Positions 2,228 through 23,194 are shown, counted from the stretch's first letter. The stretch is 64,000 nucleotides of DNA from a virus (IMGVR_UViG_3300037234_000386:1-64000), one strand, 5' to 3'. The notes: generated from the letters alone by a model not told the origin. Made by a program: numbers and translations.

Positions 2228-4255
2228 ATGCCATTAGATTTTTCAGACTTAGGGATAAAGACAAAGAATGCAAAAAGATATGCTACCACGTGTCCAGAGT
2301 GCAGTCACAATAGAAAAAAGCAATCAGCACCATGCTTAACTGTTAACGATGAACCGAACAACAGATGGTATAAGTGCTGGAATTGTGGCTTTAGTGGAAA
2401 TTTAGATGTGCAGGACAAGTACGAAGCGGTCAGAGAGAAAGCCAAGATGCCCAATCTACGGAAAGCATTCACCCAAAAAGCTAAAGCATACATTAAAACT
2501 TGGGGCATTAGTGAAAAGACATTAAAGCATTTTGAAATTTACGAAGGAGTGATATTTGGTAAATTACAACTAAACTTTCCATTTTTCATGCATCATACAT
2601 TAGTAAATGTAAAACATCTAAATGCAGAATGGAAAAAAGGAGACAACTATTCCAAATGGTATCAACTATCCCTTAAAGAAGGGGAAGAGAGAAAGATACT
2701 CCCGTTTGGAATAAACAAGATAAAAACCCACGATGAAGATGGTGTTAAAATACCTAATTTAAGGCTCTTAATTACAGAAGGAGAAAAAGATTGTGTCACA
2801 TTTTTCGAGTGTGAATACGAAAATGTAATATCAGTTCCACAAGGAGCACCTTCACTTAACGCCAAAGATTTTAAGAAAGAATTTGCATGGTTAAATGATC
2901 CATATGTAAAAACTATCTTGGATGAAGTAGAATATTTCTATTTAGCCGTAGACGCAGATGAACCGGGTAAAAAGCTTTGCCATCATCTATCTGAAATACT
3001 AGGCAAAGAAAAATGTAGAATAATTCAATACCCCACAGGATACAAAGATATTAACGAAGTATTCATGGGCGATGAAAAAAAGGGACTAAAAGCATTGGGC
3101 AAAGATGGAGTTGACGAGTGTTATAAAAACATAAAATCTATTGCTATCAAGGGAATAATTAGGATTCATGAAGTTTATGACAAGATACTTGAAATAAGAA
3201 AGAATGGATTTGTTCCAGGATTTGGAGTTGGGGATAAAGATGTAGATTATCTTTTCACGATGAAGAGAAAGCTTTTGATGGTAATTACAGGCGTACCAGG
3301 GGCGGGTAAGAGCGTTTGGGCAAGGTGGTGGATTGTTAAAATGATAATTCACAATGTTGACTTGGACTTAAAATGGGCAATGTTTACACCAGAAAACAGA
3401 CCAGTAGAGAGGGAATATGCCAAAATACTAGAAGTTTTCACAGGGCAATTGCTAAAAGAGGATTCACACAATAGCATGAGTGATGATGTGCTAAGAAAAG
3501 CTTCTAGATGGATACATAAGCACATAATGATAATAGCTCCAGACAAATACAACCACGAATCTTTTGGAGGAACGGTTAATAATGATAACCACAATACTCT
3601 TGATTCTATTCATAAATACGTAATCTATTTAAAGAAGACAGAAAATATTTTTGGTTACATGATCGATGCTTGGAATAAGATAGAACACGAACAACCAAAA
3701 AATCAAACCGAAACACAATTTATAAGCAAACAGTTAGATAAGGTTCTTTCGTTTGGGGATTATTGGGATGTAGCAACTATTATAATAGCTCATCCTACAA
3801 AAATAGAGATGGTGGGAGAAAACTTTAAAATGCCTTCTCTTTATAGCATAAAGGGATCTTCAGCATGGAAAGAAAAAACAGATATTGGTGTAATCATACA
3901 TCGTTATAAGATGAAGAAGTTATCTGCAAAAGAAGCAATGGAGAAGGGTATTGACTTAGCTTCATGCGATGATGATGAAAAATGGGAAGTTATGCCAAAG
4001 GCACCTAATATTATATTTACGGAAAAAATTAAATTTGAAGAAACTGGGCATGAGAGCAGGGTAAAGATGGAGATGAGGGGATTTGGACAGTTCTTCGTAA
4101 TAAAGAATGGAGATCAAAAATCACTACCTCCACCAGAAGAGCCTAAAAAAAACACCAATAAAAGCAAGCAGCAAAAGATTGAGCACCCTGATTCTAGAAC
4201 GGAGTCTGTAGCTAAGGTATTTGACGATGATGAATGGGATGATTTGCCTTTCTAG
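2228..4255 (+). CDS. bifunctional DNA primase-helicase (T7 gp4/Twinkle-like)
   Basis: Zn finger CPEC...CWNC, TOPRIM ITEGEKD...DAD, SF4 Walker A GVPGAGKS, IDAWN, AHP, IKGS motifs. Confidence 0.93.
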   Translation: MPLDFSDLGIKTKNAKRYATTCPECSHNRKKQSAPCLTVNDEPNNRWYKCWNCGFSGNLDVQDKYEAVREKAKMPNLRKAFTQKAKAYIKTWGISEKTLKHFEIYEGVIFGKLQLNFPFFMHHTLVNVKHLNAEWKKGDNYSKWYQLSLKEGEERKILPFGINKIKTHDEDGVKIPNLRLLITEGEKDCVTFFECEYENVISVPQGAPSLNAKDFKKEFAWLNDPYVKTILDEVEYFYLAVDADEPGKKLCHHLSEILGKEKCRIIQYPTGYKDINEVFMGDEKKGLKALGKDGVDECYKNIKSIAIKGIIRIHEVYDKILEIRKNGFVPGFGVGDKDVDYLFTMKRKLLMVITGVPGAGKSVWARWWIVKMIIHNVDLDLKWAMFTPENRPVEREYAKILEVFTGQLLKEDSHNSMSDDVLRKASRWIHKHIMIIAPDKYNHESFGGTVNNDNHNTLDSIHKYVIYLKKTENIFGYMIDAWNKIEHEQPKNQTETQFISKQLDKVLSFGDYWDVATIIIAHPTKIEMVGENFKMPSLYSIKGSSAWKEKTDIGVIIHRYKMKKLSAKEAMEKGIDLASCDDDEKWEVMPKAPNIIFTEKIKFEETGHESRVKMEMRGFGQFFVIKNGDQKSLPPPEEPKKNTNKSKQQKIEHPDSRTESVAKVFDDDEWDDLPF

Positions 4256-4307: not shown

Positions 4308-4426
4308 AACGTTTAGCTAAGAATTGAAGCGGCTAAACTCGCAGTATTTAACGAATAGAGACTAATTAAATTGATTAATACAAACCTAGGCATGCGACAA
4401 CCCCGCTTTTATTTTTAGCTGTTGTT
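4308..4426 (+). repeat. attC-like site 1
   Basis: AAC GTTT AGCTAAGAATTGAAGCGG ... CCGCTTTTATTTTTAGCT GTT GTT. Confidence 0.85.
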
Positions 4427-4448
4427 ATAGCCTGTATTTTAGAAGATT

Positions 4449-4733
4449 ATGAAAACGAAAAGAATTTGGAAATTTGAATTAGAGACTACCGACAGACAAA
4501 CTGTAGCAATGCCAGAAAATGCGGAAATACTAACAGTGCAGACGCAAAATGAAACACCTTGCATATGGGCTATAGTTGAGCCTGAAAACAAGAAAGTAAG
4601 GCGAGTGTTTGAAATATTTGGCACAGGAAACCAAGTAAATTGTAATGAAGATACCGAGCGAAACTATATAGGTACATACCAATTGAGACAAGGTAGCTTA
4701 GTGTTTCATTTATTTGAAGATACCGCAATATAG
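4449..4733 (+). CDS. cassette 1 gene, conserved small phage protein
   Basis: Flanked by GTTATAGCCTGTATT / AATATAGGCTATAAC; IWKF...ILTVQ...WA...GTG...YIGT...VFHLFE pattern. Confidence 0.8.
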   Translation: MKTKRIWKFELETTDRQTVAMPENAEILTVQTQNETPCIWAIVEPENKKVRRVFEIFGTGNQVNCNEDTERNYIGTYQLRQGSLVFHLFEDTAI

Positions 4734-4738
4734 GCTAT

Positions 4739-5230
4739 AACGTGTGCATAAACCAAGTACGCAAGTTTAGATAGAATTATAATTGAAATACTAATTAAAA
4801 ATAAAAAAGCGATGGATTTTAAAAAAGAAATTATTAAGATTATGGTAGATGCTCAAGAAAAAGTAAAGATGGGCAGCGATGGTGATTACAGCCAAGAGGT
4901 TGCAGTATTAGCCGATGATTATGATGATGTAGCGGGAAAAATATATGAAGGACTTATAAAAAAGCTACAACACCACAGAGACACTACTATTGGCTTATAT
5001 GCTACTGATAAAGAAATAGGAAAACTCCTTCATTTATTTTGGCAAAGCAGCTCAGACGCTTGCCCATTAGAATGCGGCGAGGCTGAAAAGCAAGAGATTG
5101 AATTTGAGAAATGGGTTAAGGGTATTAGTTTTAGAATTGATTAAGCGTGTAGGCTTTTATTTTTAATTGCCTAAATAACCTAAGAACTTAAATTGAAAAC
5201 AACCCTAAGTATTGGGTTTGATGCGTTGTT
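4739..5230 (+). repeat. attC-like site 2 (gene in loop)
   Basis: AAC GTGT GCATAAACCAAGTAC ... GTATTGGGTTTGATGC GTT GTT; extra G in right arm. Confidence 0.8.
4812..5144 (+). CDS. cassette 2 loop gene, hypothetical
   Basis: ORF lies wholly between the arms of site 2. Confidence 0.75.
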   Translation: MDFKKEIIKIMVDAQEKVKMGSDGDYSQEVAVLADDYDDVAGKIYEGLIKKLQHHRDTTIGLYATDKEIGKLLHLFWQSSSDACPLECGEAEKQEIEFEKWVKGISFRID

Positions 5231-5253
5231 ATAAACTTTTAAAAAATACCCTT

Positions 5254-5394
5254 ATGGAAACTAAATACAGAGTGAGAATATTTCAAGATAACACTTATGA
5301 AGTTATAGAAAAAGAAACAGGCGACAGTATGTTTCAAGGAACATTAGCTGATTGCGAAGCGTGGATTAGATTAGAAGTAGGCGGGTATTTTTAA
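5254..5394 (+). CDS. cassette 2 second gene, 46 aa hypothetical
   Basis: ATG at 5254; flanked by GTTATAAACTTTTAAAAAATACCC / GGGTATTTTTAATTGTTTTATAAT. Confidence 0.65.
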   Translation: METKYRVRIFQDNTYEVIEKETGDSMFQGTLADCEAWIRLEVGGYF

Positions 5395-5403
5395 TTGTTT
5401 TAT

Positions 5404-5524
5404 AATGGCAAGTATAAGAATAGTGGCGTAATTAATAGAATAAATTTAACTTAAAAACAAATATTGATATGAAAAAAATAAACTTTAAGAACCTAAGTAT
5501 TAGACATTATTTTTATATAGTGTT
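5404..5524 (+). repeat. attC-like site 3
   Basis: AAT GGCAA GTATAAGAATAGTG ... CATTATTTTTATAT AGT GTT. Confidence 0.8.
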
Positions 5525-5786
5525 AAAAGCTTTTATTCAATTTCAGATTAACAATGGAATGTTTAAGCATCAATATTGCTTCGAGCGGGGGCAATGGCTT
5601 AAATACAATTGGAAAGCTAAAATAATGATTGATACTGCAATTAAAGATAAGCTTCACCCGAGGCAATTTTATAGATACTTATATAAATATCCAGATAGGA
5701 ATGTGGAATTTGACAACGAAGATAGCTGCTCTGCATTTTGGGTGCGAGGGCTTTACTTTTGGGAAAAGAAACCTAATTGCTTTTAA
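5469..5786 (+). CDS. cassette 3 gene, hypothetical
   Basis: Starts in the loop of site 3; its TAA stop coincides with the junction GCTTTTAAT. Confidence 0.7.
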   Translation: MKKINFKNLSIRHYFYIVLKAFIQFQINNGMFKHQYCFERGQWLKYNWKAKIMIDTAIKDKLHPRQFYRYLYKYPDRNVEFDNEDSCSAFWVRGLYFWEKKPNCF

Positions 5787-5905
5787 TGGTAAATGTATGA
5801 AACGGTGGGATTTGAAACACGAAACCGACAAATAAAATATAAATTTAAACAAAGCTAGTGGGCTAATAATTGCACCTTAACCCCACTGTTTTATGACATA
5901 TTGTT
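5785..5905 (+). repeat. attC-like site 4
   Basis: AAT GGTAA ATGTATGAAACGGTGGG ... CCCACTGTTTTATGACAT ATT GTT; extra G. Confidence 0.85.
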
Positions 5906-5922
5906 AAGGTGCGTTATTTATT

Positions 5923-6144
5923 ATGAAAAATGCAACTGCTGAAATTCATTTGAGTATGAATGTTGAATGCCCCCATTGTGAGGATGACATAAATTTACTT
6001 GAATTAACTGAACTGACGGATGACGGATGGATTTATAATAAAACAATGCCTGATGACCGAACATGGGGTTGTGAGGATTTTAGATACAAGCTACAATGTC
6101 CAAGCTGTAAAGAAAATTTTATGATTAAGGATGTAATTTATTAA
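5923..6144 (+). CDS. cassette 4 gene, Zn-ribbon protein
   Basis: CPHC...CPSC; flanked by GTTAAGGTGCGTTA / TAATGCACCCTAAC. Confidence 0.8.
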   Translation: MKNATAEIHLSMNVECPHCEDDINLLELTELTDDGWIYNKTMPDDRTWGCEDFRYKLQCPSCKENFMIKDVIY

Positions 6145-6152
6145 TGCACCCT

Positions 6153-6204
6153 AACGATGGTTGTAAGATTTCGTTGTTTTTCACAATGAATTTTACAACG
6201 TGTT
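6153..6204 (+). repeat. attC-like site 5 (shortest, ~52 nt)
   Basis: AAC GATG GTTGTAAGATTTCGTTG ... CAATGAATTTTACAAC GT GTT. Confidence 0.88.
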
Positions 6205-6277
6205 AGCTGACTGGTGCGAATAATTTAGTACAAACTTAAATACGAAAAACAAACAAAAATATTTTAAATTTTTAGCG

Positions 6278-6862
6278 ATGGAAGAAAAAATACTGTATTG
6301 TGGGATGGCAGATGATATTCTGACACCAATGATTTTAGTCCCAAATTTTACTAATCTTTTTGTGATTGACATATTTGATATTGCTTTTGCGAAAGAAAGA
6401 ACTTGGGATGGACAGAAAAAAGATATACTACAATGTTTGAAAAATGGCAATAATGAAAAATCGCATCATAGAGAAGTTTATTTGTATTATGACAAAAGTA
6501 CACCAACATATTCAATAGATGAGAGATGCGACATAATAGAGGAAGTTGAGAATGGTAAAATTTGGAGAGTAAAATTTACATATAATGACATTGAAAGGCA
6601 GTTGATTTATTTCCATCACACAAATTTTATTGCAAATTGGGATAATGAAATTAAAGATATTTCTCATCTAATGTGTATGGGTGCAGAATTCCCAATAGAA
6701 AAAAAAGTACTCAATAAAATGATAAAGGAAAGATGCAATGAGAAATGCAAATTTTTCGACCAATTTGCAGAATTTGACAATACGATAAAGGCAAATGCAA
6801 TAGGAAGAGATATTTTTATCAATGACTTAGAAAATGTATTATGTGCGGTGGGGAAAATTTAA
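6278..6862 (+). CDS. cassette 5 gene, hypothetical (possible Rossmann-like fold)
   Basis: 194 aa ORF; segment bounded by GTTAGCTG / CAGCTAAT. Confidence 0.75.
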   Translation: MEEKILYCGMADDILTPMILVPNFTNLFVIDIFDIAFAKERTWDGQKKDILQCLKNGNNEKSHHREVYLYYDKSTPTYSIDERCDIIEEVENGKIWRVKFTYNDIERQLIYFHHTNFIANWDNEIKDISHLMCMGAEFPIEKKVLNKMIKERCNEKCKFFDQFAEFDNTIKANAIGRDIFINDLENVLCAVGKI

Positions 6863-6914
6863 AATATTTTGAACCGAAATGTTAATACGAAGAACGAACG
6901 TAGCACTTGCAGCT

Positions 6915-7103
6915 AATGGACAAGGCTAAGATTAGTTGCGTATTATTAAAAAACAAATAAAATAAGTACATATGAGTAATTTAACAGAAGACCAAATAAA
7001 TGCAGTAATTGATTGGATGAATAACTGGGAACAATTGAAAGATACTGTAATTCCGATACGTTTCAAAGAGGATTGGACTAAGCAATTAAATTTAGCTGAT
7101 GTT
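6915..7103 (+). repeat. attC-like site 6
   Basis: AAT GGACAA GGCTAAGATTAGTTGC ... GCAATTAAATTTAGCT GAT GTT. Confidence 0.82.
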
Positions 7104-7262
7104 AACCACAGTATTTTTAAACCACCATTAGGATTGAAACCTAAATTTATACACGACCAACATCGACAAAGTGAAATAATGGCTGCAATAGCAAGATATT
7201 TAGATGTAGGTAAAACACCACCTAAAGAATGGGCGATTGAATTTGCCTCATATTGTGGTTAA
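6972..7262 (+). CDS. cassette 6 gene, hypothetical
   Basis: Reads through the right arm of site 6 (KQLNLADVNHS); stop TAA lies in TGTGGTTAAC. Confidence 0.75.
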   Translation: MSNLTEDQINAVIDWMNNWEQLKDTVIPIRFKEDWTKQLNLADVNHSIFKPPLGLKPKFIHDQHRQSEIMAAIARYLDVGKTPPKEWAIEFASYCG

Positions 7263-7392
7263 CGTGTTGTATAAACTCAGTAACGTAATTAACCGCAACC
7301 GCTCAATTGAAAAACTACTGATTCCGTTTTTATTTTTTAGGGAGGGTTTTATTTTTTTTACCTTTATATTAGGATAATAAATATATTACCCT

Positions 7393-7400
7393 TATATTTG
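7393..7400 (+). promoter_or_regulatory. Bacteroidota sigma-A -7 box inside cassette 7
   Basis: TATATTTG matches TAnnTTTG, 22 nt before ATG 7423. Confidence 0.55.
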
Positions 7401-7422
7401 GGTATAATTAAAAAGCTAAAAA

Positions 7423-7623
7423 ATGAATTACGTAAAAACAATAAAGACAACACTTAGAAAAACTAACAACACTTCAGGGGCTATGGATGATTATTTTACC
7501 TCTAAAAAGGAATTGGATAAAATTGATTTAGCTTTTTATAAAAGTGGAAGTTTAATATTTATAGAAGATGAAAATCAAGTTTATAGAATACACCAAAAAG
7601 AAGTTTTAACGCTTAAAAAATAA
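7423..7623 (+). CDS. cassette 7 loop gene A, hypothetical
   Basis: ORF downstream of promoter box. Confidence 0.7.
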   Translation: MNYVKTIKTTLRKTNNTSGAMDDYFTSKKELDKIDLAFYKSGSLIFIEDENQVYRIHQKEVLTLKK

Positions 7624-7626
7624 ATA

Positions 7627-7815
7627 ATGCTTGAGTGGCTAATAAAAAACAAAGATTCGTTAAGTCTTAGAGGCATAGAACGACAATTAGACATGCCAGA
7701 TACTACGTTGGTAAAAGCTGTAAACGGTAGCCAAAACCTACCTAAAAAGTGGATTGAACCGCTAAATAAATTCCTAATGGTTTTGCAAAAACCAACGAGC
7801 GTTGGCAAAAAATAA
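7627..7815 (+). CDS. cassette 7 loop gene B, small HTH protein
   Basis: LSLRGIERQLDMPDTTLVKAVNG is an XRE/Cro-like HTH. Confidence 0.7.
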   Translation: MLEWLIKNKDSLSLRGIERQLDMPDTTLVKAVNGSQNLPKKWIEPLNKFLMVLQKPTSVGKK

Positions 7816-7915
7816 AAACATTAGCTGTGAATTTCACTATGAAAAACTTAGCAGTTATTGATTTTATACGTTGTTGTATTGAACGACTAAAAGGAGTGGC
7901 GTTTTAATGCAATAC

Positions 7916-8037
7916 AACGTTGAGTATATAGCAAATTGCTTATTAATAAATAAAACAAAAACTTTGAATATGATTACAAAATATGTAAATACTTGGAGAC
8001 TTAAAAAATGGCAAAGCAATTTGCTATATACATTGTT
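7916..8037 (+). repeat. attC-like site 8
   Basis: Perfect 18-bp stem GTATATAGCAAATTGCTT / AAGCAATTTGCTATATAC between AAC and GTT. Confidence 0.9.
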
Positions 8038-8209
8038 AGGGTTAGTTTACTCTACAAAGATTGTAAAGGGTGATAAAATTAGATGTTATGGAATAGGTTA
8101 CCCTCATTGGAAAGGCGAGGAATTTGAATGTACACTAGACTTTAAGGATGGAACAATAGGTGTAAGAAATGCAGTAAGGGTAGCCGAGAAAGATTTTAGG
8201 AAACTATAA
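7970..8209 (+). CDS. cassette 8 gene, hypothetical
   Basis: In-frame ATG 7970 after A-rich leader in the loop; segment GTTAGGGTTAGTTTA / TAAATTAACCCTAAC. Confidence 0.65.
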   Translation: MITKYVNTWRLKKWQSNLLYTLLGLVYSTKIVKGDKIRCYGIGYPHWKGEEFECTLDFKDGTIGVRNAVRVAEKDFRKL

Positions 8210-8218
8210 ATTAACCCT

Positions 8219-8496
8219 AACGTTTATTTAAGGGCAGTGCTAAATAACGAGAGAATTTAAAACGTGAATTATAAATTAACAATTTAGAAGCGATGGCAGA
8301 TAATAGAATATATGGATATTACTGGGTGAAAATAAATGAAAAGTGGGAACCCGCATTATGGAATAGTAAAAAGCAGTGGATATTGATCGGATTTGAAAAA
8401 CCTGCTTTAGTGGATGAGGTTGGTGAACTTATTATGCGTGATGGCAAAAAGCCAACAAGCGAGCCTGATACTCAGGCATTGCCTTTAAATGTTGTT
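8219..8496 (+). repeat. attC-like site 9
   Basis: AAC GTTT ATTTAAGGGCAGTGCT ... GGCATTGCCTTTAAAT GTT GTT. Confidence 0.85.
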
Positions 8497-8691
8497 AGCT
8501 TTAACGAAGCCTGTGAATGTGATAACACCGAAGTTTGCGGTATATGCTTTCGTAAAAAAGGATATGAAATAATTGATAACGAACTAAAATTCACAGGCGT
8601 AGAGGAGGTTTGCGATAAATGCGAAGAACCATTTAGCTACAAGGGAGAATATAGGAACATTTGCTTTAAATGCGAAGATGATTTTATTTAG
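8293..8691 (+). CDS. cassette 9 gene: small beta domain plus Cys-rich Zn-binding domain
   Basis: GYYWVK N-terminal domain, linker encoded by the hairpin arm (QALPLNVVS), then CEC/CGIC/CDKC/CFKC. Confidence 0.75.
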   Translation: MADNRIYGYYWVKINEKWEPALWNSKKQWILIGFEKPALVDEVGELIMRDGKKPTSEPDTQALPLNVVSFNEACECDNTEVCGICFRKKGYEIIDNELKFTGVEEVCDKCEEPFSYKGEYRNICFKCEDDFI

Positions 8692-8704
8692 CAAACTTAA
8701 AGCT

Positions 8705-9168
8705 AACGGAAATAATAAGAAGCGTACGGAATAACCTGAGAATTTAAAACGAGTAATAATTTAAAATAAAAAAAAGCGATGGAAAATTTTGGAAAATTTA
8801 TGACACTAGTAATGGCTATGATTATTAGCCCGATTGTAAGCGGTTTTGTAACTATGAAGTTATGGTTTTGGTTTATGGTTCCAATATTTGGAATGAACCC
8901 ACTTAGATTAGTTGAAGCGATTGGATTAATGTTTTTAATTAATTACCTGAAGTTTAGAAAAACAAAGCCTACGGATAAGGATAAGTTTTGGCTTGAATTT
9001 ACAGAAAGTATAATTACTGTGATACTTATAGCTGCTGTGGCTTTGTTTAGCGGTTGGATAGTACAGAAGTTTATGTAAAGTGTGCGTAGGCTTTTTATTT
9101 TAAATTGCCTCAGTTTACACGAATGAAGCCACGAGCTACGGCACTAAGTATGCTTTTTATTTAGTGTT
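8705..9168 (+). repeat. attC-like site 10 (gene in loop)
   Basis: AAC GGAAAT AATAAGAAGCGTAC ... GTATGCTTTTTATTT AGT GTT; followed by gene-less segment GTTGTACGC...GCGTACAAC. Confidence 0.8.
8779..9078 (+). CDS. cassette 10 loop gene, membrane protein
   Basis: Three hydrophobic segments, LWFWFMVPIFG motif. Confidence 0.8.
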   Translation: MENFGKFMTLVMAMIISPIVSGFVTMKLWFWFMVPIFGMNPLRLVEAIGLMFLINYLKFRKTKPTDKDKFWLEFTESIITVILIAAVALFSGWIVQKFM

Positions 9169-9243
9169 GTACGCTGTGCTTTTTATAAGATGCTGAGAGG
9201 GTAATTATTAAGAACCAATAAAAACCTTTTTAGCATTGCGTAC

Positions 9244-9450
9244 AACGTGGATGGGCTATGAGTAGTATTTTTAACGAATTTGAAACACTAAACTAAAATT
9301 ATACATAATGATAACAGATGCTAAGATAAAACAAGGAATGGAGAAAGCTTATAAAAAAGCAGGACATAATACCTACTTCAGCAATGGTTTTGAAGCGGGG
9401 GTAAGGTTTGCACTAGAACAAGTTAAAAATATTACTTATGAGCCTGTGTT
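9244..9450 (+). repeat. attC-like site 11
   Basis: AAC GTGG ATGGGCTATGAGTAGTATTTTTAAC ... GTTAAAAATATTACTTATGAGCCTGT GTT; extra G. Confidence 0.9.
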
Positions 9451-9592
9451 AAGCGTTGTTGATTCAGATGCAAAAGAAGAGAAAGAAAAAATAATAACAG
9501 CAATACTTTATGAGCACATGGATCATCACAGCGGAAAAGTTTCAGAATTAGATTTTGATGCAGTTGTTGCAGACGTAATTAAACATACGTAA
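9308..9592 (+). CDS. cassette 11 gene, hypothetical
   Basis: Reads through right arm (VKNITYEPVLSVV); segment GTTAAGCGTTGTT / AATAACGCTTAAC. Confidence 0.75.
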   Translation: MITDAKIKQGMEKAYKKAGHNTYFSNGFEAGVRFALEQVKNITYEPVLSVVDSDAKEEKEKIITAILYEHMDHHSGKVSELDFDAVVADVIKHT

Positions 9593-9593
9593 T

Positions 9594-9631
9594 AACGCTT
9601 AACATATATTATCCTTAATGTAGTTAATCAA
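9594..9631 (-). other. putative attI-like primary recombination site
   Basis: Last AAC (9601-9603) is not followed by a hairpin. The minus strand reads GATA-ATATAT-GTT, the same xWTA-N6-GTT geometry as the hairpin arms, and sits next to the recombinase start. Confidence 0.6.
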
Positions 9632-10465
9632 TTGACACAAAAATACTTAAAAATGGAATTGACAGAGTTATTAAAAAAATATGACAACAACTTAAACCTT
9701 AAATATGATTCTAAAAATACTAAAGATGGTTATAGGAATGCGATCAATAGATATATAAAGGACAATGATAGGGTTTACAGAATGTCTACCGACAATATAA
9801 AGCAATATATGTCTAATTTTAGAAAAATATACTCTAACTCTTATTTTAATATTATGGGATCATCATTAATTTTACTTTACCGAGATGTGTTAAATCAACC
9901 ATTAAAAATGAAGTGGTTTAAGTCTATAAAAACAGAACGAAAGTTTCATCGGATAATAACTAATGATGAATTTATTCAGATGATGAAAAATGCTAAAAAT
10001 TTAAAACATAAGGTGATTTTAATAATACTTTATTCGACAGGAATAAGAGAAACTGAGTTAATAAACATTAAACTCTCAGATATTGATTTTAACTCTAAGA
10101 GAATTTTTATCAAATCGTTAAAGAATGGTAAAAACAGATATTCTCCACTAAAAGAATTAACTGAGCGTTACATTAAAGCATATATCAGAGGATGGAGCCC
10201 TAAAGAGTATCTTTTGAATGGTCAAAATACATTAAAATACTCCACAAGCAGTGTATTTCAAATGATAAAAAAGGTTTCTGAAGGTAAAGTTAATCCTCAC
10301 TTATTTCGTCATACTTTCGCCACACTTATGATTGAACATGAAGATGTGTTTTACACACAAGAATTATTAGGGCAAAGAAATCTTAATAGTACATTACATT
10401 ACAATCACATTTCTCAAGAAAGATTAATTAAATCATTTAATCCACTAGACAAAATAGCAAGTTAA
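9632..10465 (+). CDS. tyrosine recombinase (integron-integrase-related, lacks IntI-specific insertion)
   Basis: YSTGIR, KNGKNR, HLFRHTFAT, ELLGQ, catalytic Y in TLHYNH, C-terminal NPLD; alternative start ATG 9653. Confidence 0.93.
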   Translation: MTQKYLKMELTELLKKYDNNLNLKYDSKNTKDGYRNAINRYIKDNDRVYRMSTDNIKQYMSNFRKIYSNSYFNIMGSSLILLYRDVLNQPLKMKWFKSIKTERKFHRIITNDEFIQMMKNAKNLKHKVILIILYSTGIRETELINIKLSDIDFNSKRIFIKSLKNGKNRYSPLKELTERYIKAYIRGWSPKEYLLNGQNTLKYSTSSVFQMIKKVSEGKVNPHLFRHTFATLMIEHEDVFYTQELLGQRNLNSTLHYNHISQERLIKSFNPLDKIAS

Positions 10466-10467
10466 TT

Positions 10468-10737
10468 ATGAAAACACAGGGAAACGAAATTTTAATATTA
10501 CCGGATGAAAATCCAGCAGAAACGAAAACAGGTATCATCATACCTAAAACAGCTAGTAAATTAAAGCCATCTGGAATAGTTATTGGCTGTGGAGATGGTT
10601 GCAAAACGGCTTACAAGGGAGCTAGAGTACTTTATAGTCCTAAAAATGGAAGTATAATGGATATTGAAGGTAAAGAACACCATGTCATTAGAGAAGAGCA
10701 ATTATACTATGTTTATGGGAAAGAAACAGATAGTTAA
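10468..10737 (+). CDS. GroES/Cpn10-like co-chaperonin
   Basis: ETKTGIIIP mobile loop, GIVIGCGDG, GARVLY, IREEQL. Confidence 0.85.
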   Translation: MKTQGNEILILPDENPAETKTGIIIPKTASKLKPSGIVIGCGDGCKTAYKGARVLYSPKNGSIMDIEGKEHHVIREEQLYYVYGKETDS

Positions 10738-11151: not shown

Positions 11152-12261
11152 ATGAAAAAACATTTAAAAGTTTATCACATGAAAGAACATTCTCCAGAGT
11201 GGTATGCTTTTAGAGAGAATGGAATCGGAGGTTCGGAGTGTGCTAATGCAATAGGAATGGGGCATCCTAAATATAGTTGTCCAGCAGTATTATATCATGA
11301 AAAAGTAGGAACACATCCTCCTATTCAAAAAGACAATGAGAGAATGTTTTGGGGACGAAAGAACGAGGATAATATTGCTGAGGTATGGAAATACTACGAC
11401 AATACTACTGATGGATATATTGAAAATTACAAAAACAAAACTATTGTTCGCAATTGTCGCAACGTAAATGGATATGTTGTTAATCCTAATTATCCTTGGT
11501 TATTTGCCTCATTAGATCGAGTGATGAACAAAGAAGGCGGCATTAATTTCATTACAGCAGAGCCATTGGAACAAGAAGCTATTTTGGAATGTAAAAATGT
11601 AGGTCAATATGCTGCAAACACTTGGGAAGATGGCATACCAATGTATTTCCTTATTCAAGTACACGAATACATGATAGTATTAGAAACTGATTATGCAGAA
11701 GTAGCAATGCTTGTTGATGGTGGAAGACTTGAAGTCGTTAAGCTAAATCGAGACGATAAGCTTTGTGAACAGATTATACGAATGACAAAATCATTTTGGT
11801 ACGATAGGGTTGTTCCTGCAAAAGAAGCCTTTGCAAAACAACAAGAAGCTGACAAGGCAGGGAACATGAATGAGTCTGAAAAACATGAAGCTATTATACA
11901 GCATTTGGAGCCAGAACCAAATGATTCCGAAGCTTACAACGCCTTTATGAATGAAAAGTTTGTTAAGGAAAGAGAATCGGTTCAAGGCAACATGGATCTA
12001 CTCAAGTTGGGAAGAAAATACCACTTGTTAAATAAGATCATTAAAAAGCTGGATGCCGAAAAACAACTTATAAAGAATGTTTTTGCTAAATTTTTAACAG
12101 TTAATGGCTCTGAATCAGTAGATTTTGGTAGTAGTGGTCGGATTAATTGGTCCTCAAGAAAAGGATCTAGCAGCAGAACATTTGGTAATAAACTTAAAGA
12201 AAAACCTTCTGACGATATTGTAGAAGATGAAGTGAGTAAACTAGATCTGGATTGTTTTTAA
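11152..12261 (+). CDS. YqaJ/lambda-exonuclease family nuclease
   Basis: EWxxxRxxGIGGSE, WGxxNE, ASLDR, LECK, Y-x-x-QV-x-x-YM. Confidence 0.92.
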   Translation: MKKHLKVYHMKEHSPEWYAFRENGIGGSECANAIGMGHPKYSCPAVLYHEKVGTHPPIQKDNERMFWGRKNEDNIAEVWKYYDNTTDGYIENYKNKTIVRNCRNVNGYVVNPNYPWLFASLDRVMNKEGGINFITAEPLEQEAILECKNVGQYAANTWEDGIPMYFLIQVHEYMIVLETDYAEVAMLVDGGRLEVVKLNRDDKLCEQIIRMTKSFWYDRVVPAKEAFAKQQEADKAGNMNESEKHEAIIQHLEPEPNDSEAYNAFMNEKFVKERESVQGNMDLLKLGRKYHLLNKIIKKLDAEKQLIKNVFAKFLTVNGSESVDFGSSGRINWSSRKGSSSRTFGNKLKEKPSDDIVEDEVSKLDLDCF

Positions 12262-21185: not shown

Positions 21186-21225
21186 AAAAAAACCCTAGCA
21201 CAAACGAATGTACTAGGGTTTTTTT
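21186..21225. terminator. bidirectional terminator
   Basis: A7-CCCTAG ... CTAGGG-T7 between convergent genes. Confidence 0.8.
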
Positions 21226-21763
21226 ATTCTTCATCTAAGAACCAATCAAAACCTTTTTCTTCTTTATAAACAGCATTCATGTTGTCTTCAAGAGCAGCCT
21301 TATTCACTTTTCTCAACACTCTTTTAAAAAAAGCAATTCCTGCTGGTGTAAACAATATAAATGTTTTTTGCATACAGTTTCTATGAGGATACACAGCATC
21401 GAAAGTTTGGCGAGAAAAAAAACCTAAGTCTTTTAGCGTATGTATTCTAATCCTCTCCTGGTGGCAAATATTATGGTTCCTGCTATCAATAGTTACCGTT
21501 CCTCCTTTGGTTAGAAACCACAGCTTGCACATAATGAACCAATGATAAAGACCTACTTTAGGCTCAGTCTCTTCCAAAACTTTTATTATTGGATATATGA
21601 GTGCTATCCCATCAAGCATAGAGAATGGAAATAGATAATTCCATATTGCTTTGTATAGGATTTTGAATAGGTTGATTTTTTTACCCTCTAATTTTATGTA
21701 GATGTTTTTTATCGAGGGATCAAGCTCGTATAGTTCGGGTGGTGCTGGCGTGTTATTTTGCAT
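21224..21763 (-). CDS. hypothetical protein, possible winged helix
   Basis: IHTLKDLGFFSR...ILFTPAG resembles a MarR-like wHTH. Confidence 0.55.
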   Translation of the reverse strand: MQNNTPAPPELYELDPSIKNIYIKLEGKKINLFKILYKAIWNYLFPFSMLDGIALIYPIIKVLEETEPKVGLYHWFIMCKLWFLTKGGTVTIDSRNHNICHQERIRIHTLKDLGFFSRQTFDAVYPHRNCMQKTFILFTPAGIAFFKRVLRKVNKAALEDNMNAVYKEEKGFDWFLDEE

Positions 21764-21962
21764 GGCCTTCTGTATTAAATCCGTACTTTTCCATTACTGG
21801 AAGGATCTTTGCCCTGTGAACTGGCTCTATTGTATCGCTCTTCGTCTTGTAGTTGAGATAATTGCGGCCAAGTGTGCACTCCTTTAGAAATATCGCAACC
21901 TTAATGGCTTGATGCCCTTTTAGAAAGGCTTTTAAGTCCTTTTTTGTTAGTTTTTGCTTCAT
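21753..21962 (-). CDS. small putative DNA-binding protein
   Basis: Minus-strand operon ORF. Confidence 0.6.
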   Translation of the reverse strand: MKQKLTKKDLKAFLKGHQAIKVAIFLKECTLGRNYLNYKTKSDTIEPVHRAKILPVMEKYGFNTEGHAK

Positions 21963-22165
21963 TATGCTAGTGTTAGTTTAATAAATACGTTTTGATACCT
22001 TAGACATCGCCTCAAATCATCACTGTTTAAAATAGGATGCTTTGAATAAGTTTCGCCTTCCTTGTTAAGCTCAAAAATTTCTACTGTATCGCTTAAAAAC
22101 AAGTTGCTTGCAATTTCAAAAACATTGACATAAACAATATTTTTGACAAATATATATTTTTCCAT
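21962..22165 (-). CDS. hypothetical protein
   Basis: TAATG coupling. Confidence 0.6.
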   Translation of the reverse strand: MEKYIFVKNIVYVNVFEIASNLFLSDTVEIFELNKEGETYSKHPILNSDDLRRCLRYQNVFIKLTLA

Positions 22166-22245
22166 AATAAAAAATATTAGTTAATAAAAATGTCTTTACG
22201 ACTTGGAACCCCAAACCAGAACAATCTGGTGAGGGGTTTAATAAA

Positions 22246-22428
22246 TTAATTAATCACTACTAAATTAGAAAGAAAACCTATTACATAATGATTTGAGTTA
22301 AAAAAATCCAGATAAACCAAATCATATTTTTTATTTACATTACTTTTTCTAATTTCTGAAATTGTACCAATATAAGAACAGTGTTCTTTTTGTGGCAATC
22401 CTCCTATTTTACCTATTAATTCATTCAT
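22246..22428 (-). CDS. hypothetical protein
   Basis: ORF with A-rich leader. Confidence 0.5.
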   Translation of the reverse strand: MNELIGKIGGLPQKEHCSYIGTISEIRKSNVNKKYDLVYLDFFNSNHYVIGFLSNLVVIN

Positions 22429-22486
22429 GATTTTAATTGTTTAGTTACAAAATATATATTCATTCCTAGATTTTCAAAAAATACCA

Positions 22487-23194
22487 TTATCTTAAAATAT
22501 CAAATGAAATATAATATTTATTACCTGTTTGACGTAAACAATAATAAACGGTTTCGCCTGCGTCTGTGTGTGTGTAAGCTTCGGAACAATAAAAACAACC
22601 TTTACCATAAATAGGAGGTAAGCATTCTAAAAAATGCCAGTAAATGGGCTTTAAAACTTCAAACTCTTGCCCTAGTCTTTTACTAGACATTTTCTTTTTA
22701 ACCTCTTCAAAGTGTTTCCATGCAACGCGCTCTAAATCATTGCGCTCTACTTGTTCTGCTAGTCGTTTGGCGTACTCTTCAAAATAATATATTATAAGAT
22801 TTAATTTATCATCAAAAAAAGTATTTTCTTCTTGGCTTACTGCGTTGTTTCTGTTTCCATTGTAACCAACGACACCACCACAAAAAGAGAAATCAAAATA
22901 TTTACCTATTTGTACTAAATCAATAACTAAGACACGTATTTTGTTATATTCTCTAATTTGCGGAGTATATCCATCTATAGAAGCTGCGTTTTTTGCAGAT
23001 TCAAAGCTGTGCATGTTTAATTTATTTTTATCAAACCATGTGCTTAATGGGTGCACATCACAAGCAAAAACATATTTACAATTAAACATTATTTTTAAAT
23101 ATTCACTAACCTTGTTAAATCGTTCAATTGCCTGATTTTGGTTAGATATATTTACAAAATCGTTTCCTGGTAATTTATTGAAGTTTGGTATCAT
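22487..23194 (-). CDS. hypothetical protein (C-terminal YWHFLECLPP...F..SEA motif)
   Basis: Motif typical of early/anti-restriction-associated phage and plasmid proteins. Confidence 0.7.
   Translation of the reverse strand: MIPNFNKLPGNDFVNISNQNQAIERFNKVSEYLKIMFNCKYVFACDVHPLSTWFDKNKLNMHSFESAKNAASIDGYTPQIREYNKIRVLVIDLVQIGKYFDFSFCGGVVGYNGNRNNAVSQEENTFFDDKLNLIIYYFEEYAKRLAEQVERNDLERVAWKHFEEVKKKMSSKRLGQEFEVLKPIYWHFLECLPPIYGKGCFYCSEAYTHTDAGETVYYCLRQTGNKYYISFDILR

Follow-up and report, generated by a model that had tools for sequence, protein, structure and literature searches.

A marine phage genome carries an integron-like array of small swappable cassettes with its own recombinase, but the array is built in reverse orientation. 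We consider it probable that the phage carries a cassette platform functioning like an integron, in which the recombinase cuts a folded + strand at AA^C. No experiment supports this, and the single-stranded DNA substrate is inferred. Observed are the anatomy of the array, its conservation in relatives, cassette differences bounded by AAC, covariation between the site arms and a strand bias. The window analysed here is a stretch of 64,000 nucleotides of the phage genome. In the published literature no phage-native platform of such kind was found, with the reservation that Table S1 of PMC9892861 (17 CALINs) was not covered and could include relatives.

Layout of the cassette array

Eleven cassettes lie within positions 4308–9603, and left-arm and right-arm sites are in strict alternation along the array. 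Each cassette has AAY-G at its start and a matching T-GTT arm. All features given below are on the + strand. Site 1 (4308–4426, 119 nt) forms the distal array end, and the box preceding its AAC has no upstream GTT partner; cassette 1 (4310–4740) contains a DUF7352 ORF (4449–4733). Site 2 (4739–5230, 492 nt) has an ORF between its arms (4812–5144) and an extra G in the right arm, and an additional ORF (5254–5394) is present in cassette 2 (4741–5405). Sites 3 (5404–5524) and 4 (5785–5905) are both 121 nt long with an AAT junction. In cassette 3 (5406–5786) the ORF (5469–5786) starts in the loop and spans the right arm. Site 4 carries a single bulged G, and its cassette (5787–6154) contains ORF 5923–6144. 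Site 5 (6153–6204, 52 nt) is the most compact of the 11 and belongs to cassette 5 (6155–6916; ORF 6278–6862).

Site 6 (6915–7103, 189 nt) has the third AAT junction. The ORF of cassette 6 (6917–7262) spans the right arm (6972–7262), and the AA of the next AAC belongs to its TAA stop. Two ORFs (7423–7623 and 7627–7815) are situated between the arms of site 7 (7261–7875, 615 nt; cassette 7, 7263–7917). Site 8 (7916–8037, 122 nt) has perfect arms of 18 nt. Right arms are spanned by the ORFs of cassette 8 (7918–8220; ORF 7970–8209) and of cassette 9 (8221–8706; ORF 8293–8691), the latter with site 9 at 8219–8496 (278 nt). Site 10 (8705–9168, 464 nt; cassette 10, 8707–9245) has an ORF for a membrane protein (phrog_2169, 8779–9078) between its arms. 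Site 11 (9244–9450, 207 nt) has a single bulged G, and the ORF of cassette 11 (9246–9602) again spans the right arm (9308–9592). The attI-like site follows at 9601–9652. It consists of AAC and then A/T-rich sequence without a hairpin partner, 49 nt 5' of the ATG of a tyrosine recombinase gene (9653–10465) that encodes a 270-aa Xer/IntI-like protein without the IntI-specific domain.

Site lengths range from 52 to 615 nt, five of the 11 being 52–122 nt and six 189–615 nt. In a wider set of 42 sites from seven loci, which was picked with motif filters, 18 are 150 nt or shorter. A site precedes or overlaps its ORF, or the ORF sits inside the site. Five of the 11 right arms (R3, R6, R8, R9 and R11) are inside ORFs. 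None of the left sites is, two of them merely sharing the AA of a TAA stop.

Site geometry

The arm motifs described in the initial annotation hold throughout. In the right arms, given as TWT(G)A-N6-GTT, T is directly 5' of GTT and A is 7 nt before G in 11/11 cases, with GTT ending at 4426, 5230, 5524, 5905, 6204, 7103, 7875, 8037, 8496, 9168 and 9450. Left arms are AAY-G in all 11 sites, AAC in eight and AAT at 5404, 5785 and 6915. A twelfth AAC, as AAC-A, is found at 9601–9603, beyond the 11 left arms, and T is present 8 nt upstream of AAY in 12/12 cases. Two further claims of the annotation need correction. A TAW motif was said to follow the AAY by 7–10 nt and to create an asymmetric unpaired spacer; the asymmetry is real, but the distance reads as 5–10 nt. 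One unpaired G was placed at the same position in the 3' arm of sites 2, 4 and 11. In dimer folds sites 4 and 11 each have one unpaired G, located 8 nt upstream of the GTT guanine, but in site 2 it is unpaired jointly with the adjacent T. A bulged right-arm G is present in 3/11 window sites and in 3/42 sites of the wider set.

When both strands of the 72,323-nt genome were searched with the pattern T[TA]T[TG]?A-N5-TGTT[AG], 11 distinct sites were found on the + strand, all within 4413–9450, with no further match on the rest of that strand; the − strand had four distinct sites. GTT..AAY boxes with at least 9 of 10 pairs and all four signature bases occur eight times on the + strand, always in the array, and once on the − strand. 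Since the right-arm pattern was built from the same 11 sites, the independent test is taken from related loci, in which perfect 10-bp boxes occur 44 times upstream of the recombinase gene and 4 times downstream. In 8/8 long viral loci, right-arm motif matches are also concentrated on the + strand, 5' of the gene for the recombinase homologue.

Hairpin folding and strand preference

Bases 3' of each GTT pair with bases 5' of the next AAY over 8–14 bp (11/11 cases). With the left arm of their own site the same bases form 3–6 bp only, i.e. the array form has a short outer box. In the modelled structures the outer box and the inner stem are a continuous hairpin only after the AA^C cut and circularisation. 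The summed energy of the modelled excised forms is −217.7 kcal/mol for the + strand and −186.0 kcal/mol for the − strand, as compared to −149.8 kcal/mol for the array form. True arm partners pair with a mean energy of −12.6 kcal/mol, mismatched partners with −6.5 kcal/mol.

Covariation was assessed in 13 sites about 120 nt long; of the 18 predicted pairs, 14 have compensatory changes. Paired cells amount to 91.4% in this set, compared to 63.4% after shuffling (0/500 shuffles reach the observed value) and 31–49% when the arms are slid. Within the inner stem, two columns are G.U, one in 11/13 and one in 12/13 sites. Opposite the T of the outer-box wobble, G is found in 40 of 60 units and A in just 4. 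The conserved G.T wobbles may be stand-ins for extrahelical bases. An Rfam search matched no family to the hairpin sites, and no promoter-like or terminator-like excess was found at the array. Classical attC sites are roughly 57–141 nt long. Six of the 11 sites are far longer than this, so that long-range folding as single-stranded DNA is less likely for the sites of 189–615 nt, which have ORFs between or across the arms, than for classical attC.

The initial annotation inferred that the + (coding) strand acts as the folded, bottom-like strand. Every computational test run supports this, although there is no experiment. The + strand folds better in 10/11 window sites, in 11/11 modelled excised forms and in 38 of the 42 sites of the wider set. 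The initial annotation also noted that most stem mismatches are G-T on the + strand and would be A-C on the − strand, and with the conserved ends removed there are 57 G.T pairs on the + strand versus 4 on the − strand. The crossover maps to the left-arm AAY, that is, to AA^C on the + strand, where AAC is in the 5' arm and the extra G, in the three sites that have one, in the 3' arm. The order cassettes, AAC, attI-like site, recombinase gene corresponds to the bottom-strand view of a classical integron, and only the ORFs are flipped. Because folding and coding strand coincide, the genes of the cassettes point to attI and the recombinase gene, and all 13 cassette ORFs have this orientation.

GC skew is positive over the whole genome, and the + strand is G- and A-rich throughout. 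A strand-biased mutation pattern could be an extra contributor to the G.T excess; nearly equal G × T and A × C frequencies speak against such an account. It is important to keep in mind that the + strand is also transcribed, and therefore an RNA structure would explain covariation and G.U pairs just as well. Folding in DNA, and not in the mRNA of the same strand, is inferred and has not been shown.

Relatives and cassette turnover

Eight related viral contigs have the same layout. The array, the attI-like site and the recombinase co-occur in all eight long loci, with recombinase identity of 42–57%. The attI-like site is similar in sequence and has the same position in the relatives. The distance from AAC to ATG is 49 nt in the window and in L003, L004, L006, L007 and L008, and 50 nt in L009; in L005 the AAC is 59 nt before the start of the tblastn match. 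Perfect 10-bp GTT..AAC boxes are found 44 times upstream and 4 times downstream of the recombinase gene in the relatives, and 18/44 upstream boxes versus 0/4 downstream ones have all five signature bases.

Cassette turnover can be followed by comparing L007 and L008, which are 99.4–100% identical outside whole-cassette differences. A 472-nt cassette that lies at the attI-like site in L007 is 2.5 kb away from that site in L008. L008 lacks a 7-kb block of L007, and an L008-only cassette block lies between an older cassette and the attI-like site. In both contigs cassettes abut the attI-like site directly after AAC. One of the L007/L008 junctions immediately follows ...TAAC, and the other is located in 17 nt of sequence that include AAC. 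Four more homology edges at AAC come from the pairs L006/L008, L006/L007 and L007/L009. Window positions 7951–8221 share 87.5% identity with gp30 of Cellulophaga phage phi18:1, a match that stops at the C of the following AAC. In total, eight edges of homology between arrays coincide with AAC. The cassette boundaries are thus at AAC, resolved to the shared TAAC; the exact bond within it can only be inferred from the sequences. The evidence is limited to contigs of one metagenome run, without raw reads and without an excised circle.

The recombinase

The catalytic fold of the 270-aa recombinase is recognised by Pfam PF00589. Its structural model (pLDDT 88.2) matches XerA best and then VchIntIA, to which (2a3v) it aligns in two pieces, with 39 residues where IntIA has 87. 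In the alignment P0093 and P0057 have the IntI insertion, and three phage-family proteins are without it. Scores against the curated integron-integrase and Xer models are all below the cut-offs: 96.5 bits versus 265 for TIGR02249, 49.6 versus 435 for NF011946, 135.7 versus 220 for NF040815, 96.8 versus 335 for XerC and 88.3 versus 330 for XerD. In a quick tree the phage family is monophyletic and falls on that side of a 99% split where a domain-bearing integron integrase is also found. This tree rests on a quick search and has long branches; the careful search is unfinished.

The IntI-specific domain of integron integrases holds the extrahelical bases and, according to PMC4889954, is required for activity. 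Its absence from the phage protein counts against an integron-like function. That the neighbouring recombinase is the enzyme cutting the cassette sites is inferred, without experimental data. In one genome for each of 185,579 prokaryote species, no relative closer than 37% identity and no prophage-like copy of the recombinase family was found. The lack of a prokaryote relative above 37% identity argues against a lysogeny integrase.

Proposed mechanism and alternative explanations

In the mechanism that we propose, a cassette unit begins at the C of an AAY and stops with the AA of the following one, its recombination site coming first. In the folded site, N7-AAC would pair with GTT-N7' to form the outer box, which has two conserved G.T wobbles at its sides. 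Inside it would lie a small internal loop with a longer 5' side, followed by an inner stem, variable in sequence but paired, and a variable loop. Because the outer box is complete only on joining a cassette end to its own start, the full site would be that of the excised circle. The recombinase would cut the folded + strand at AA^C, within its 5' arm. Excision would be strand exchange between two cassette sites; for insertion, a cassette site would exchange strands with the attI-like site, 49 nt upstream of the recombinase gene. The single-strand exchange would need to be resolved by replication, as in integrons. Expression of the cassette genes would depend on transcription of the phage genome from further upstream. 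Their transcription as part of the phage operon is inferred only from gene orientation and the lack of promoter-like excess; there are no RNA data.

Folding would be unnecessary if ordinary double-stranded recombination took place at the left-arm AAC and the inverted repeats were by-products or had another purpose. Such recombination would suit a plain Xer-type enzyme without the integron-specific domain. Conserved bases beside AAC (T at −8, G at +1) are readable in duplex DNA, and the sites of 189–615 nt are hard to fold. We nevertheless regard it as improbable: the arms vary yet stay complementary (14/18 pairs compensatory, 0/500 shuffles), G.T exceeds A.C by 57 to 4, conserved wobbles bring no gain to a duplex reader, and the outer box forms across cassette ends only. 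A duplex model accounts for none of the covariation, the G.T excess, the wobbles or the cross-end box. The hairpins could instead be RNA structures in the long + transcript, involved in processing, stability or control of translation, with cassette-sized differences produced by homologous recombination at the short conserved boxes and an unrelated recombinase. The folding strand is the transcribed one, G.U pairs and covariation are typical of RNA structures, and the five right arms in coding sequence are close to gene starts. However, arm positions relative to start codons are inconsistent, and neither an Rfam match nor a terminator-like excess was obtained. Breakpoints coincide with the AAC, also at the attI-like site, whose only common sequence with cassette ends is TAAC. 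The outer box and inner stem form one helix solely in the circularised cassette, and the array always adjoins the recombinase gene at the fixed distance of 49 nt. An RNA function alone is thus equally improbable in our judgement.

The sites could also be an attC cluster on which the integron integrase of a host acts in trans, while the phage enzyme is a bystander with a role in lysogeny or dimer resolution. There is precedent for this, as integrase-less attC clusters are reported in phages and, according to PMC9892861, some are recombined by IntI1 in E. coli. Moreover, Polaribacter phage P12002L has 14 motif matches on the coding strand and no annotated integrase. Against a bystander role, the array, the attI-like site and the recombinase are kept together at fixed spacing in 8/8 long loci, and new cassettes abut the site beside the recombinase gene. 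Nor did the survey of one genome per species reveal a prophage-like recombinase copy, the best match being 37%. We hold service in trans to be the least probable of the explanations considered, and our preferred reading remains a platform with a dedicated recombinase acting on the folded + strand.

Comparison with known systems

The array resembles classical integrons (IntI/attI/attC; class 1 and the Vibrio cholerae IntIA/VCR system) in many respects. Cassettes are bounded at AA^C. The sites have an outer AAC/GTT box, an unpaired spacer, an inner box and a variable loop, the structure being kept and the sequence varying. An attI-type site lies beside the recombinase gene, and cassettes, attI and recombinase are in the order of the bottom-strand view. 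In the classical attC bottom strand, as described in PMC5027507, AAC is in the cleaved arm, extrahelical bases are on the opposite arm and G:T mispairs are more frequent (1.24 on the favoured strand versus 0.39 on the other). The phage sites likewise have a favoured strand with more G.T pairs and, in 3/11 window sites, an extra base on the arm opposite AAC. There are also clear differences. The phage recombinase lacks the IntI-specific domain and does not reach the TIGR02249 cut-off. The phage genes are on the folding strand, the site comes before the gene, genes point toward attI and there is no Pc-type arrangement, whereas classical ORFs are expressed from a Pc promoter and read away from attI with attC downstream. 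The phage outer box is 10–14 bp long and specific to each cassette, with conserved G.T wobbles on either side; just 3/11 sites have a bulged base, 6/11 sites are 189–615 nt long with ORFs inside or across them, and the carrier is a phage genome.

CALINs (attC clusters without an integrase) with attC-like sites between small genes have been described in virulent marine phages, including a Polaribacter (Flavobacteriia) phage (Qi et al. 2023, PMC9892861); on the coding strand of this phage the right-arm motif of the window also clusters. No integrase is reported in that paper for virulent phages, and the sites were tested with the bacterial IntI1. The window array differs in having a dedicated recombinase and a conserved attI-like site, despite which it would count as a CALIN under the strict IntI definition, which asks for two or more attC sites without an integron integrase close by. 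Integrons with an inverted integrase (Treponema and others) similarly have a non-classical relative orientation of integrase and cassettes. In those, according to PMC4889954, the integrase gene is flipped and the IntI domain kept; in the window the integrase has the classical orientation to the sites, and it is the ORFs of the cassettes that are inverted.

Archaeal XerA and bacterial XerC/D are the best sequence and fold matches of the phage recombinase (NF040815; PDB 4a8e and 5hxy), and they share its size of about 270–290 aa without an extra domain. Xer differs in resolving dimers at one duplex dif site, and the phage score is under the NF040815 cut-off. With the CTX phage, XerCD is known to use folded single-stranded substrates.

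A chromosomal locus in a Bacteroidales MAG (L038) has conserved repeats of about 130 nt with an AAC-G start and a T-GTT end, and 12 matches to the same right-arm motif, beside a recombinase that is 37% identical to the phage one and also without the IntI insertion. Unlike in the phage array, there is hardly any sequence difference among these repeats, a feature of sedentary integrons. The recombinase gene has its 3' end on the side of the array, and its product is extended at the N-terminus by about 250 aa.

Array architecture and genome setting

The viral record is 72,323 bases long and carries direct terminal repeats (exact repeat 127 nt); the window is its first 64,000 bases. Nearly all long ORFs of the whole genome lie on the + strand. 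The array is bordered on one side by a Toprim-domain primase/helicase-like gene (2228-4255). Four genes lie downstream of it, among them those for a tyrosine recombinase of 270 aa (ATG at 9653, end at 10465) and, after it, a Cpn10 (GroES-like) protein (10468-10737) and a YqaJ-type nuclease (11152-12261). Among 50,697 phage records, DNA of the array is matched by a single small gene, from Cellulophaga phages phi18:1/phi18:2, a link that suggests hosts in Cellulophaga and its relatives. Pfam and PHROGs assign cassette ORFs to DUF7352, to a membrane-protein family and, weakly, to zinc ribbons; the remaining cassette ORFs have no match in either database. GC skew stays positive over the entire genome, and nearly all genes are on the + strand; composition cannot reveal which strand is the lagging-strand template. 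The sole long minus-strand ORFs of the window are found at 21224-23194, where the skew is briefly negative.

The initial annotation had described eleven recombination sites of strict geometry, and this description largely stands. All eleven right arms are present, ending at 4426, 5230, 5524, 5905, 6204, 7103, 7875, 8037, 8496, 9168 and 9450. A T precedes GTT in 11/11, and an A is located seven bases before the G, also in 11/11, with TWT or TWTG preceding it. Left arms of the form AAY-G begin at 4308, 4739, 5404, 5785, 6153, 6915, 7261, 7916, 8219, 8705 and 9244, and three of them have the AAT junction, as had been claimed. The TAW motif following AAY is there too, but at a distance of 5-10 bases and not 7-10. 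T is found eight bases 5' of AAY in 12/12 cases. Left and right arms alternate strictly along the array and the series is closed by a twelfth AAC at 9601-9603, with A as the next base. The right-arm pattern T[TA]T[TG]?A-N5-TGTT[AG] occurs at eleven distinct places on the + strand, all within the array; it is absent from the other 67 kb of that strand and has four places on the - strand. GTT..AAY boxes with the full signature occur eight times on the + strand, always within the array, and once on the - strand. Box searches permitting G.T pairs were overwhelmed by chance matches in AT-rich DNA, and stricter rules were used instead.

Bases following GTT are complementary to the bases ahead of the next AAY (8-14 pairs, 11/11), whereas with the bases ahead of the AAY of their own site they form just 3-6 pairs. 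Thus each AAY-to-AAY stretch bears two halves of an outer box, one at each end. Joining a cassette's end to its own start at AA|C in silico brings the outer box into a stack with the inner stem, and the excised form is then a single long imperfect hairpin; its internal loop is small and leaves 2-4 bases unpaired 5' and 0-2 unpaired 3'. Completion of the hairpin by end-to-start joining is the logic of integron cassettes. The GTT-to-AAY stretches 7875-7916 (41 nt) and 9168-9244 (76 nt) are free of ORFs, and in cassettes 7 and 10 the coding sequence is located entirely between the site arms.

The coding strand as the probable folding strand

Inverted site polarity, with the + (coding) strand acting as the bottom-like folding strand, had been inferred in the initial annotation, and comparison of both strands with DNA folding parameters supports it. 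The arms are more stable on the + strand in ten of the eleven window sites, with one tie (summed arm energy -143.0 kcal/mol on + versus -125.1 kcal/mol on -), and the modelled excised forms fold better on + in 11/11. Of 42 distinct sites drawn from seven loci, 38 favour the + strand and 3 the - strand, with one tie. AAYG and TGTT had been fixed by site selection and were therefore taken out; the + strand is still better in 38/42 and G.T pairs are 57 in + folds versus 4 in - folds. True arm partners give -12.6 kcal/mol as compared to -6.5 kcal/mol for mismatched partners. Applied to thirteen sites of about 120 nt, RNAalifold predicts a helix of 18 pairs, of which 14 have compensatory changes; two helix columns are G.U in 11/13 and 12/13 sites. 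Paired cells reach 91.4%, as against 63.4% in shuffles (0/500) and 31-49% with the partner slid. The G after AAY is opposite the T before GTT, and at the far end of the outer box an invariant T is opposite G in 40/60 units and opposite A in just 4. Taken together, the G.T data indicate conserved wobble pairs that are carried by the site and exist on the + strand only. Columns 17/150 and 22/145 of the site alignment A3 are the two wobbles of the conserved inner stem (e.g. 5785-5905, 7916-8037). It is possible that these fixed G.T wobbles serve as recognition marks.

As far as the available text of PMC5027507 goes, the bottom strand of classical attC is cut between A and C of AAC, its extrahelical bases are on the arm opposite AAC, and G:T mispairs are more frequent on the bottom (1.24) than on the top strand (0.39). 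Within that limit, the cut site, the arm with extrahelical bases and the G:T excess all map onto the + strand here. That folding takes place in DNA rather than in RNA is inferred, without any experiment. It should be kept in mind that the site set was chosen with filters, that six window sites are 189-615 nt long with ORFs inside or across them, that a bulged G is seen in just three sites and that the outer boxes are short in the array form. We cannot dismiss a contribution of the genome-wide purine excess of the + strand to the G.T bias.

Crossover position and cassette turnover

A cut at the GTT of the right arm would yield the same outer-box pattern as a cut at AAY, so two further tests were needed to place the crossover. 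The first concerns the position of ORFs. Right arms are inside ORFs in five of eleven cases (5469-5786, 6972-7262, 7970-8209, 8293-8691 and 9308-9592) and left arms in none; in two cassettes the AA of AAY is the end of a TAA stop codon. The second concerns edges of homology. Homology with phi18:1 spans 7951-8221 and ends at the C of AAC 8219-8221. Two viral contigs from different metagenomes, L007 and L008, are 99.4-100% identical across 10.6 kb around the recombinase gene. A 472-nt cassette adjoins the attI-like site in L007 and is followed by 2.5 kb of other cassettes in L008, while a 7-kb block is found in L007 only. At one junction ...TAAC is followed either by attI-like sequence or by G and a new left arm; the other is inside a 17-nt stretch that holds AAC and is bracketed by one single-base difference. 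Four more homology edges at AAC are seen among L006, L007, L008 and L009; at one of them L006 and L008 share a cassette end, after which L006 has another cassette and L008 the attI-like site. The absence of left arms from ORFs and the homology edges at AAC place the cassettes from AAY to AAY, with the site at the upstream end. The one DNA sequencing run, probably the source metagenome, was examined as contigs, which are unable to reveal circles or rare junctions.

At window 7933-8025, one contig of this metagenome has both arms of site 8 with 22 other letters replacing the 91-nt loop, which contains the start of ORF 7970-8209; its depth is 8.9 and the side 24. Site 8 thus exists elsewhere in the community in a compact form. 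Two ORFs located wholly between arms, 4812-5144 and 8779-9078, have similar upstream sequences (4776-4815 and 8736-8782) ending in AGCGATGG, and a similar downstream element (5145-5176 and 9079-9112) with a short GGC/GCC stem and a T-rich loop. Both elements are found also in the viral contig L010, and a metagenome contig of lower depth joins 4814 to 5149, skipping ORF 4812-5144. The elements could reflect an additional level at which modules are exchanged, or else the decayed sites of cassettes that have fused.

The recombinase and its relatives

Pfam finds a catalytic domain and a SAM-like N-terminal domain in the recombinase. Its best NCBIfam model is archaeal XerA/integron-integrase with 135.7 bits (cut-off 220), followed by XerC (96.8) and the integron-integrase model (96.5 in two stretches, cut-off 265). 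Among solved structures XerA aligns end to end and Vibrio cholerae IntIA in two pieces, the recombinase having 39 residues where IntIA has 87. In a protein alignment (A2) the IntI insertion is present in two domain-bearing integron integrases and absent from three phage-family proteins, the recombinase of a Bacteroidales MAG (L038) and two other relatives. The AlphaFold model (pLDDT 88.2) matches XerA best, then IntIA. In a quick tree of 100 proteins the phage family is one clade with support 100, and a 99% split separates this family, the domain-bearing integrase P0093 and the L038 protein from 77 XerC/D-like proteins. The tree is a quick search with long branches and a midpoint root, and for that reason only the grouping is taken from it.

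The family comprises about 33 proteins of 268-278 aa with 49-81% identity, every member being metagenomic. Scanning viral contigs with a single protein gave no relative; an alignment-based scan found eight contigs with flanks, and a metagenome scan returned two large contigs already found plus short ones. A search of 185,579 species, with one genome for each, gave no family member (best match 37% identical), which speaks against a role in lysogeny.

Site and enzyme are found together in the relatives. In 8/8 viral contigs the right-arm motif forms a + strand cluster upstream of the recombinase gene. L006 has eleven upstream and none downstream; downstream matches are one in L004 and four in L010. 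The distance from AAC to ATG is 49 nt in the window, L003, L004, L006, L007 and L008 and 50 nt in L009, with a similar A/T-rich sequence after that AAC, as is also the case in six shorter contigs. A motif-free search for perfect 10-bp GTT..AAC boxes gives 44 in 59.6 kb upstream versus 4 in 68.1 kb downstream. Among the 44, A at -7 is found in 30, T at -1 in 35, G after AAC in 32, T at -8 in 38 and G at +8 in 31; all five signature bases together occur in 18/44 upstream boxes and in 0/4 downstream. The contents of the arrays are almost wholly different between contigs, and the few ORFs common to several contigs differ in distance from the recombinase gene.

Discussion

Two features define integrons: an integrase whose special domain is considered necessary for handling folded attC, and cassettes read from a promoter at attI. 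In the anatomy of its sites, the crossover point, the strand bias and the position of attI the phage array resembles an integron; it differs in that its recombinase fails the defining protein test of the family. With genes on the folding strand, the site precedes the gene, and genes are read toward attI and the recombinase gene. The observation behind the initial annotation is confirmed, and its inference that the + strand acts as the bottom strand is supported. We read the feature as an integron variant carried by phages. Our confidence is slightly better than even that all parts of the following hold jointly: marine Bacteroidota phages run their own integron, whose recombinase is related to integrases, either lost the IntI-specific domain or never possessed it, and takes up and reshuffles early accessory genes in the form of cassettes; the hairpins that it uses form on the coding strand, with conserved G.T wobbles and not extrahelical bases as their marks; and the same enzyme and site type occur also in chromosomal Bacteroidales arrays (L038).

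Transcription of the array from the upstream operon, which had been proposed as well, remains an inference that rests only on gene orientation and on the lack of a promoter-like excess. Sigma-70-type promoter-like sites are not enriched (30 found, 32.9 expected), terminator-like sites are 4 with 2.4 expected, and TANNTTTG, a Bacteroidota -7 motif, has just two occurrences on the + strand of the array. Rfam gave no family at E up to 1 except one chance-level match. Shuffling by promoter-stem-loops occurs in T4-type phages; here it was set aside, as there is no promoter signal and a recombinase and an attI-like site are present. Shufflon-type inversion was set aside too: no ORF lies on the opposite strand, and the conserved positions distinguish left arms from right arms.

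If the reading of a phage-run integron is true, integron-style recombination would predate the IntI clade and extend beyond it, with no requirement for the extra domain. Capture of cassettes as folded single strands would then need no IntI-specific domain, wobble pairs could encode strand choice, and the rule of gene orientation would be set by the source of transcription and not by recombination chemistry. Phages would gain a built-in trade of small early genes, a class that often holds counter-defence functions. Bacterial integrons have recently been reported to store anti-phage defences; phage trade of counter-defence genes would mirror these stores. Lysogeny should not be inferred from the presence of a tyrosine recombinase in such phages, and integron finders that depend on the IntI domain would class such arrays as orphan attC clusters.

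The portion of PMC4889954 at hand reports integrases without the IntI-specific domain only beside fewer than three sites; in contrast, such an enzyme here accompanies 11 sites in the window, and the relatives have still more. Clusters of attC without integrase in virulent phages, including Polaribacter phage P12002L, are described in the accessible text of Qi et al. (PMC9892861). Our search of full-text literature, which does not cover supplementary tables, found no description of a platform native to phages that has a recombinase and an attI site of its own. P12002L has 14 strict right-arm motif matches on the coding strand in its early region (L051 29600-45300, minus strand), so that, on sequence grounds, its site type is probably the same as that of the window. 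The matches surround methyltransferase genes, the cluster without integrase of Qi et al., and no integrase is annotated there.

The Bacteroidales MAG chromosome bears 12 or more repeats (L038:8650-16696, minus strand), each about 130 nt long and almost identical in sequence, which start with AAC-G, end with T-GTT and have the same right-arm motif as the window. The adjoining recombinase gene (L038:7116-8705) has its 3' end facing the array; the protein is 37% identical to the phage one, is without the IntI insertion, passes NF040815 (232.5, cut-off 220) and misses the integron-integrase model (214.9, cut-off 265). Phage phi18:1 was not among the matches listed in a tblastn search with the recombinase. 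In this phage the gp30 homologue of cassette 8 is followed by a perfect hairpin that starts with AAC and ends with GTT (L001:8260-8330), and a direct repeat of about 60 nt is located ahead of several small genes (L001:7935-7999, 8390-8455, 8600-8635).
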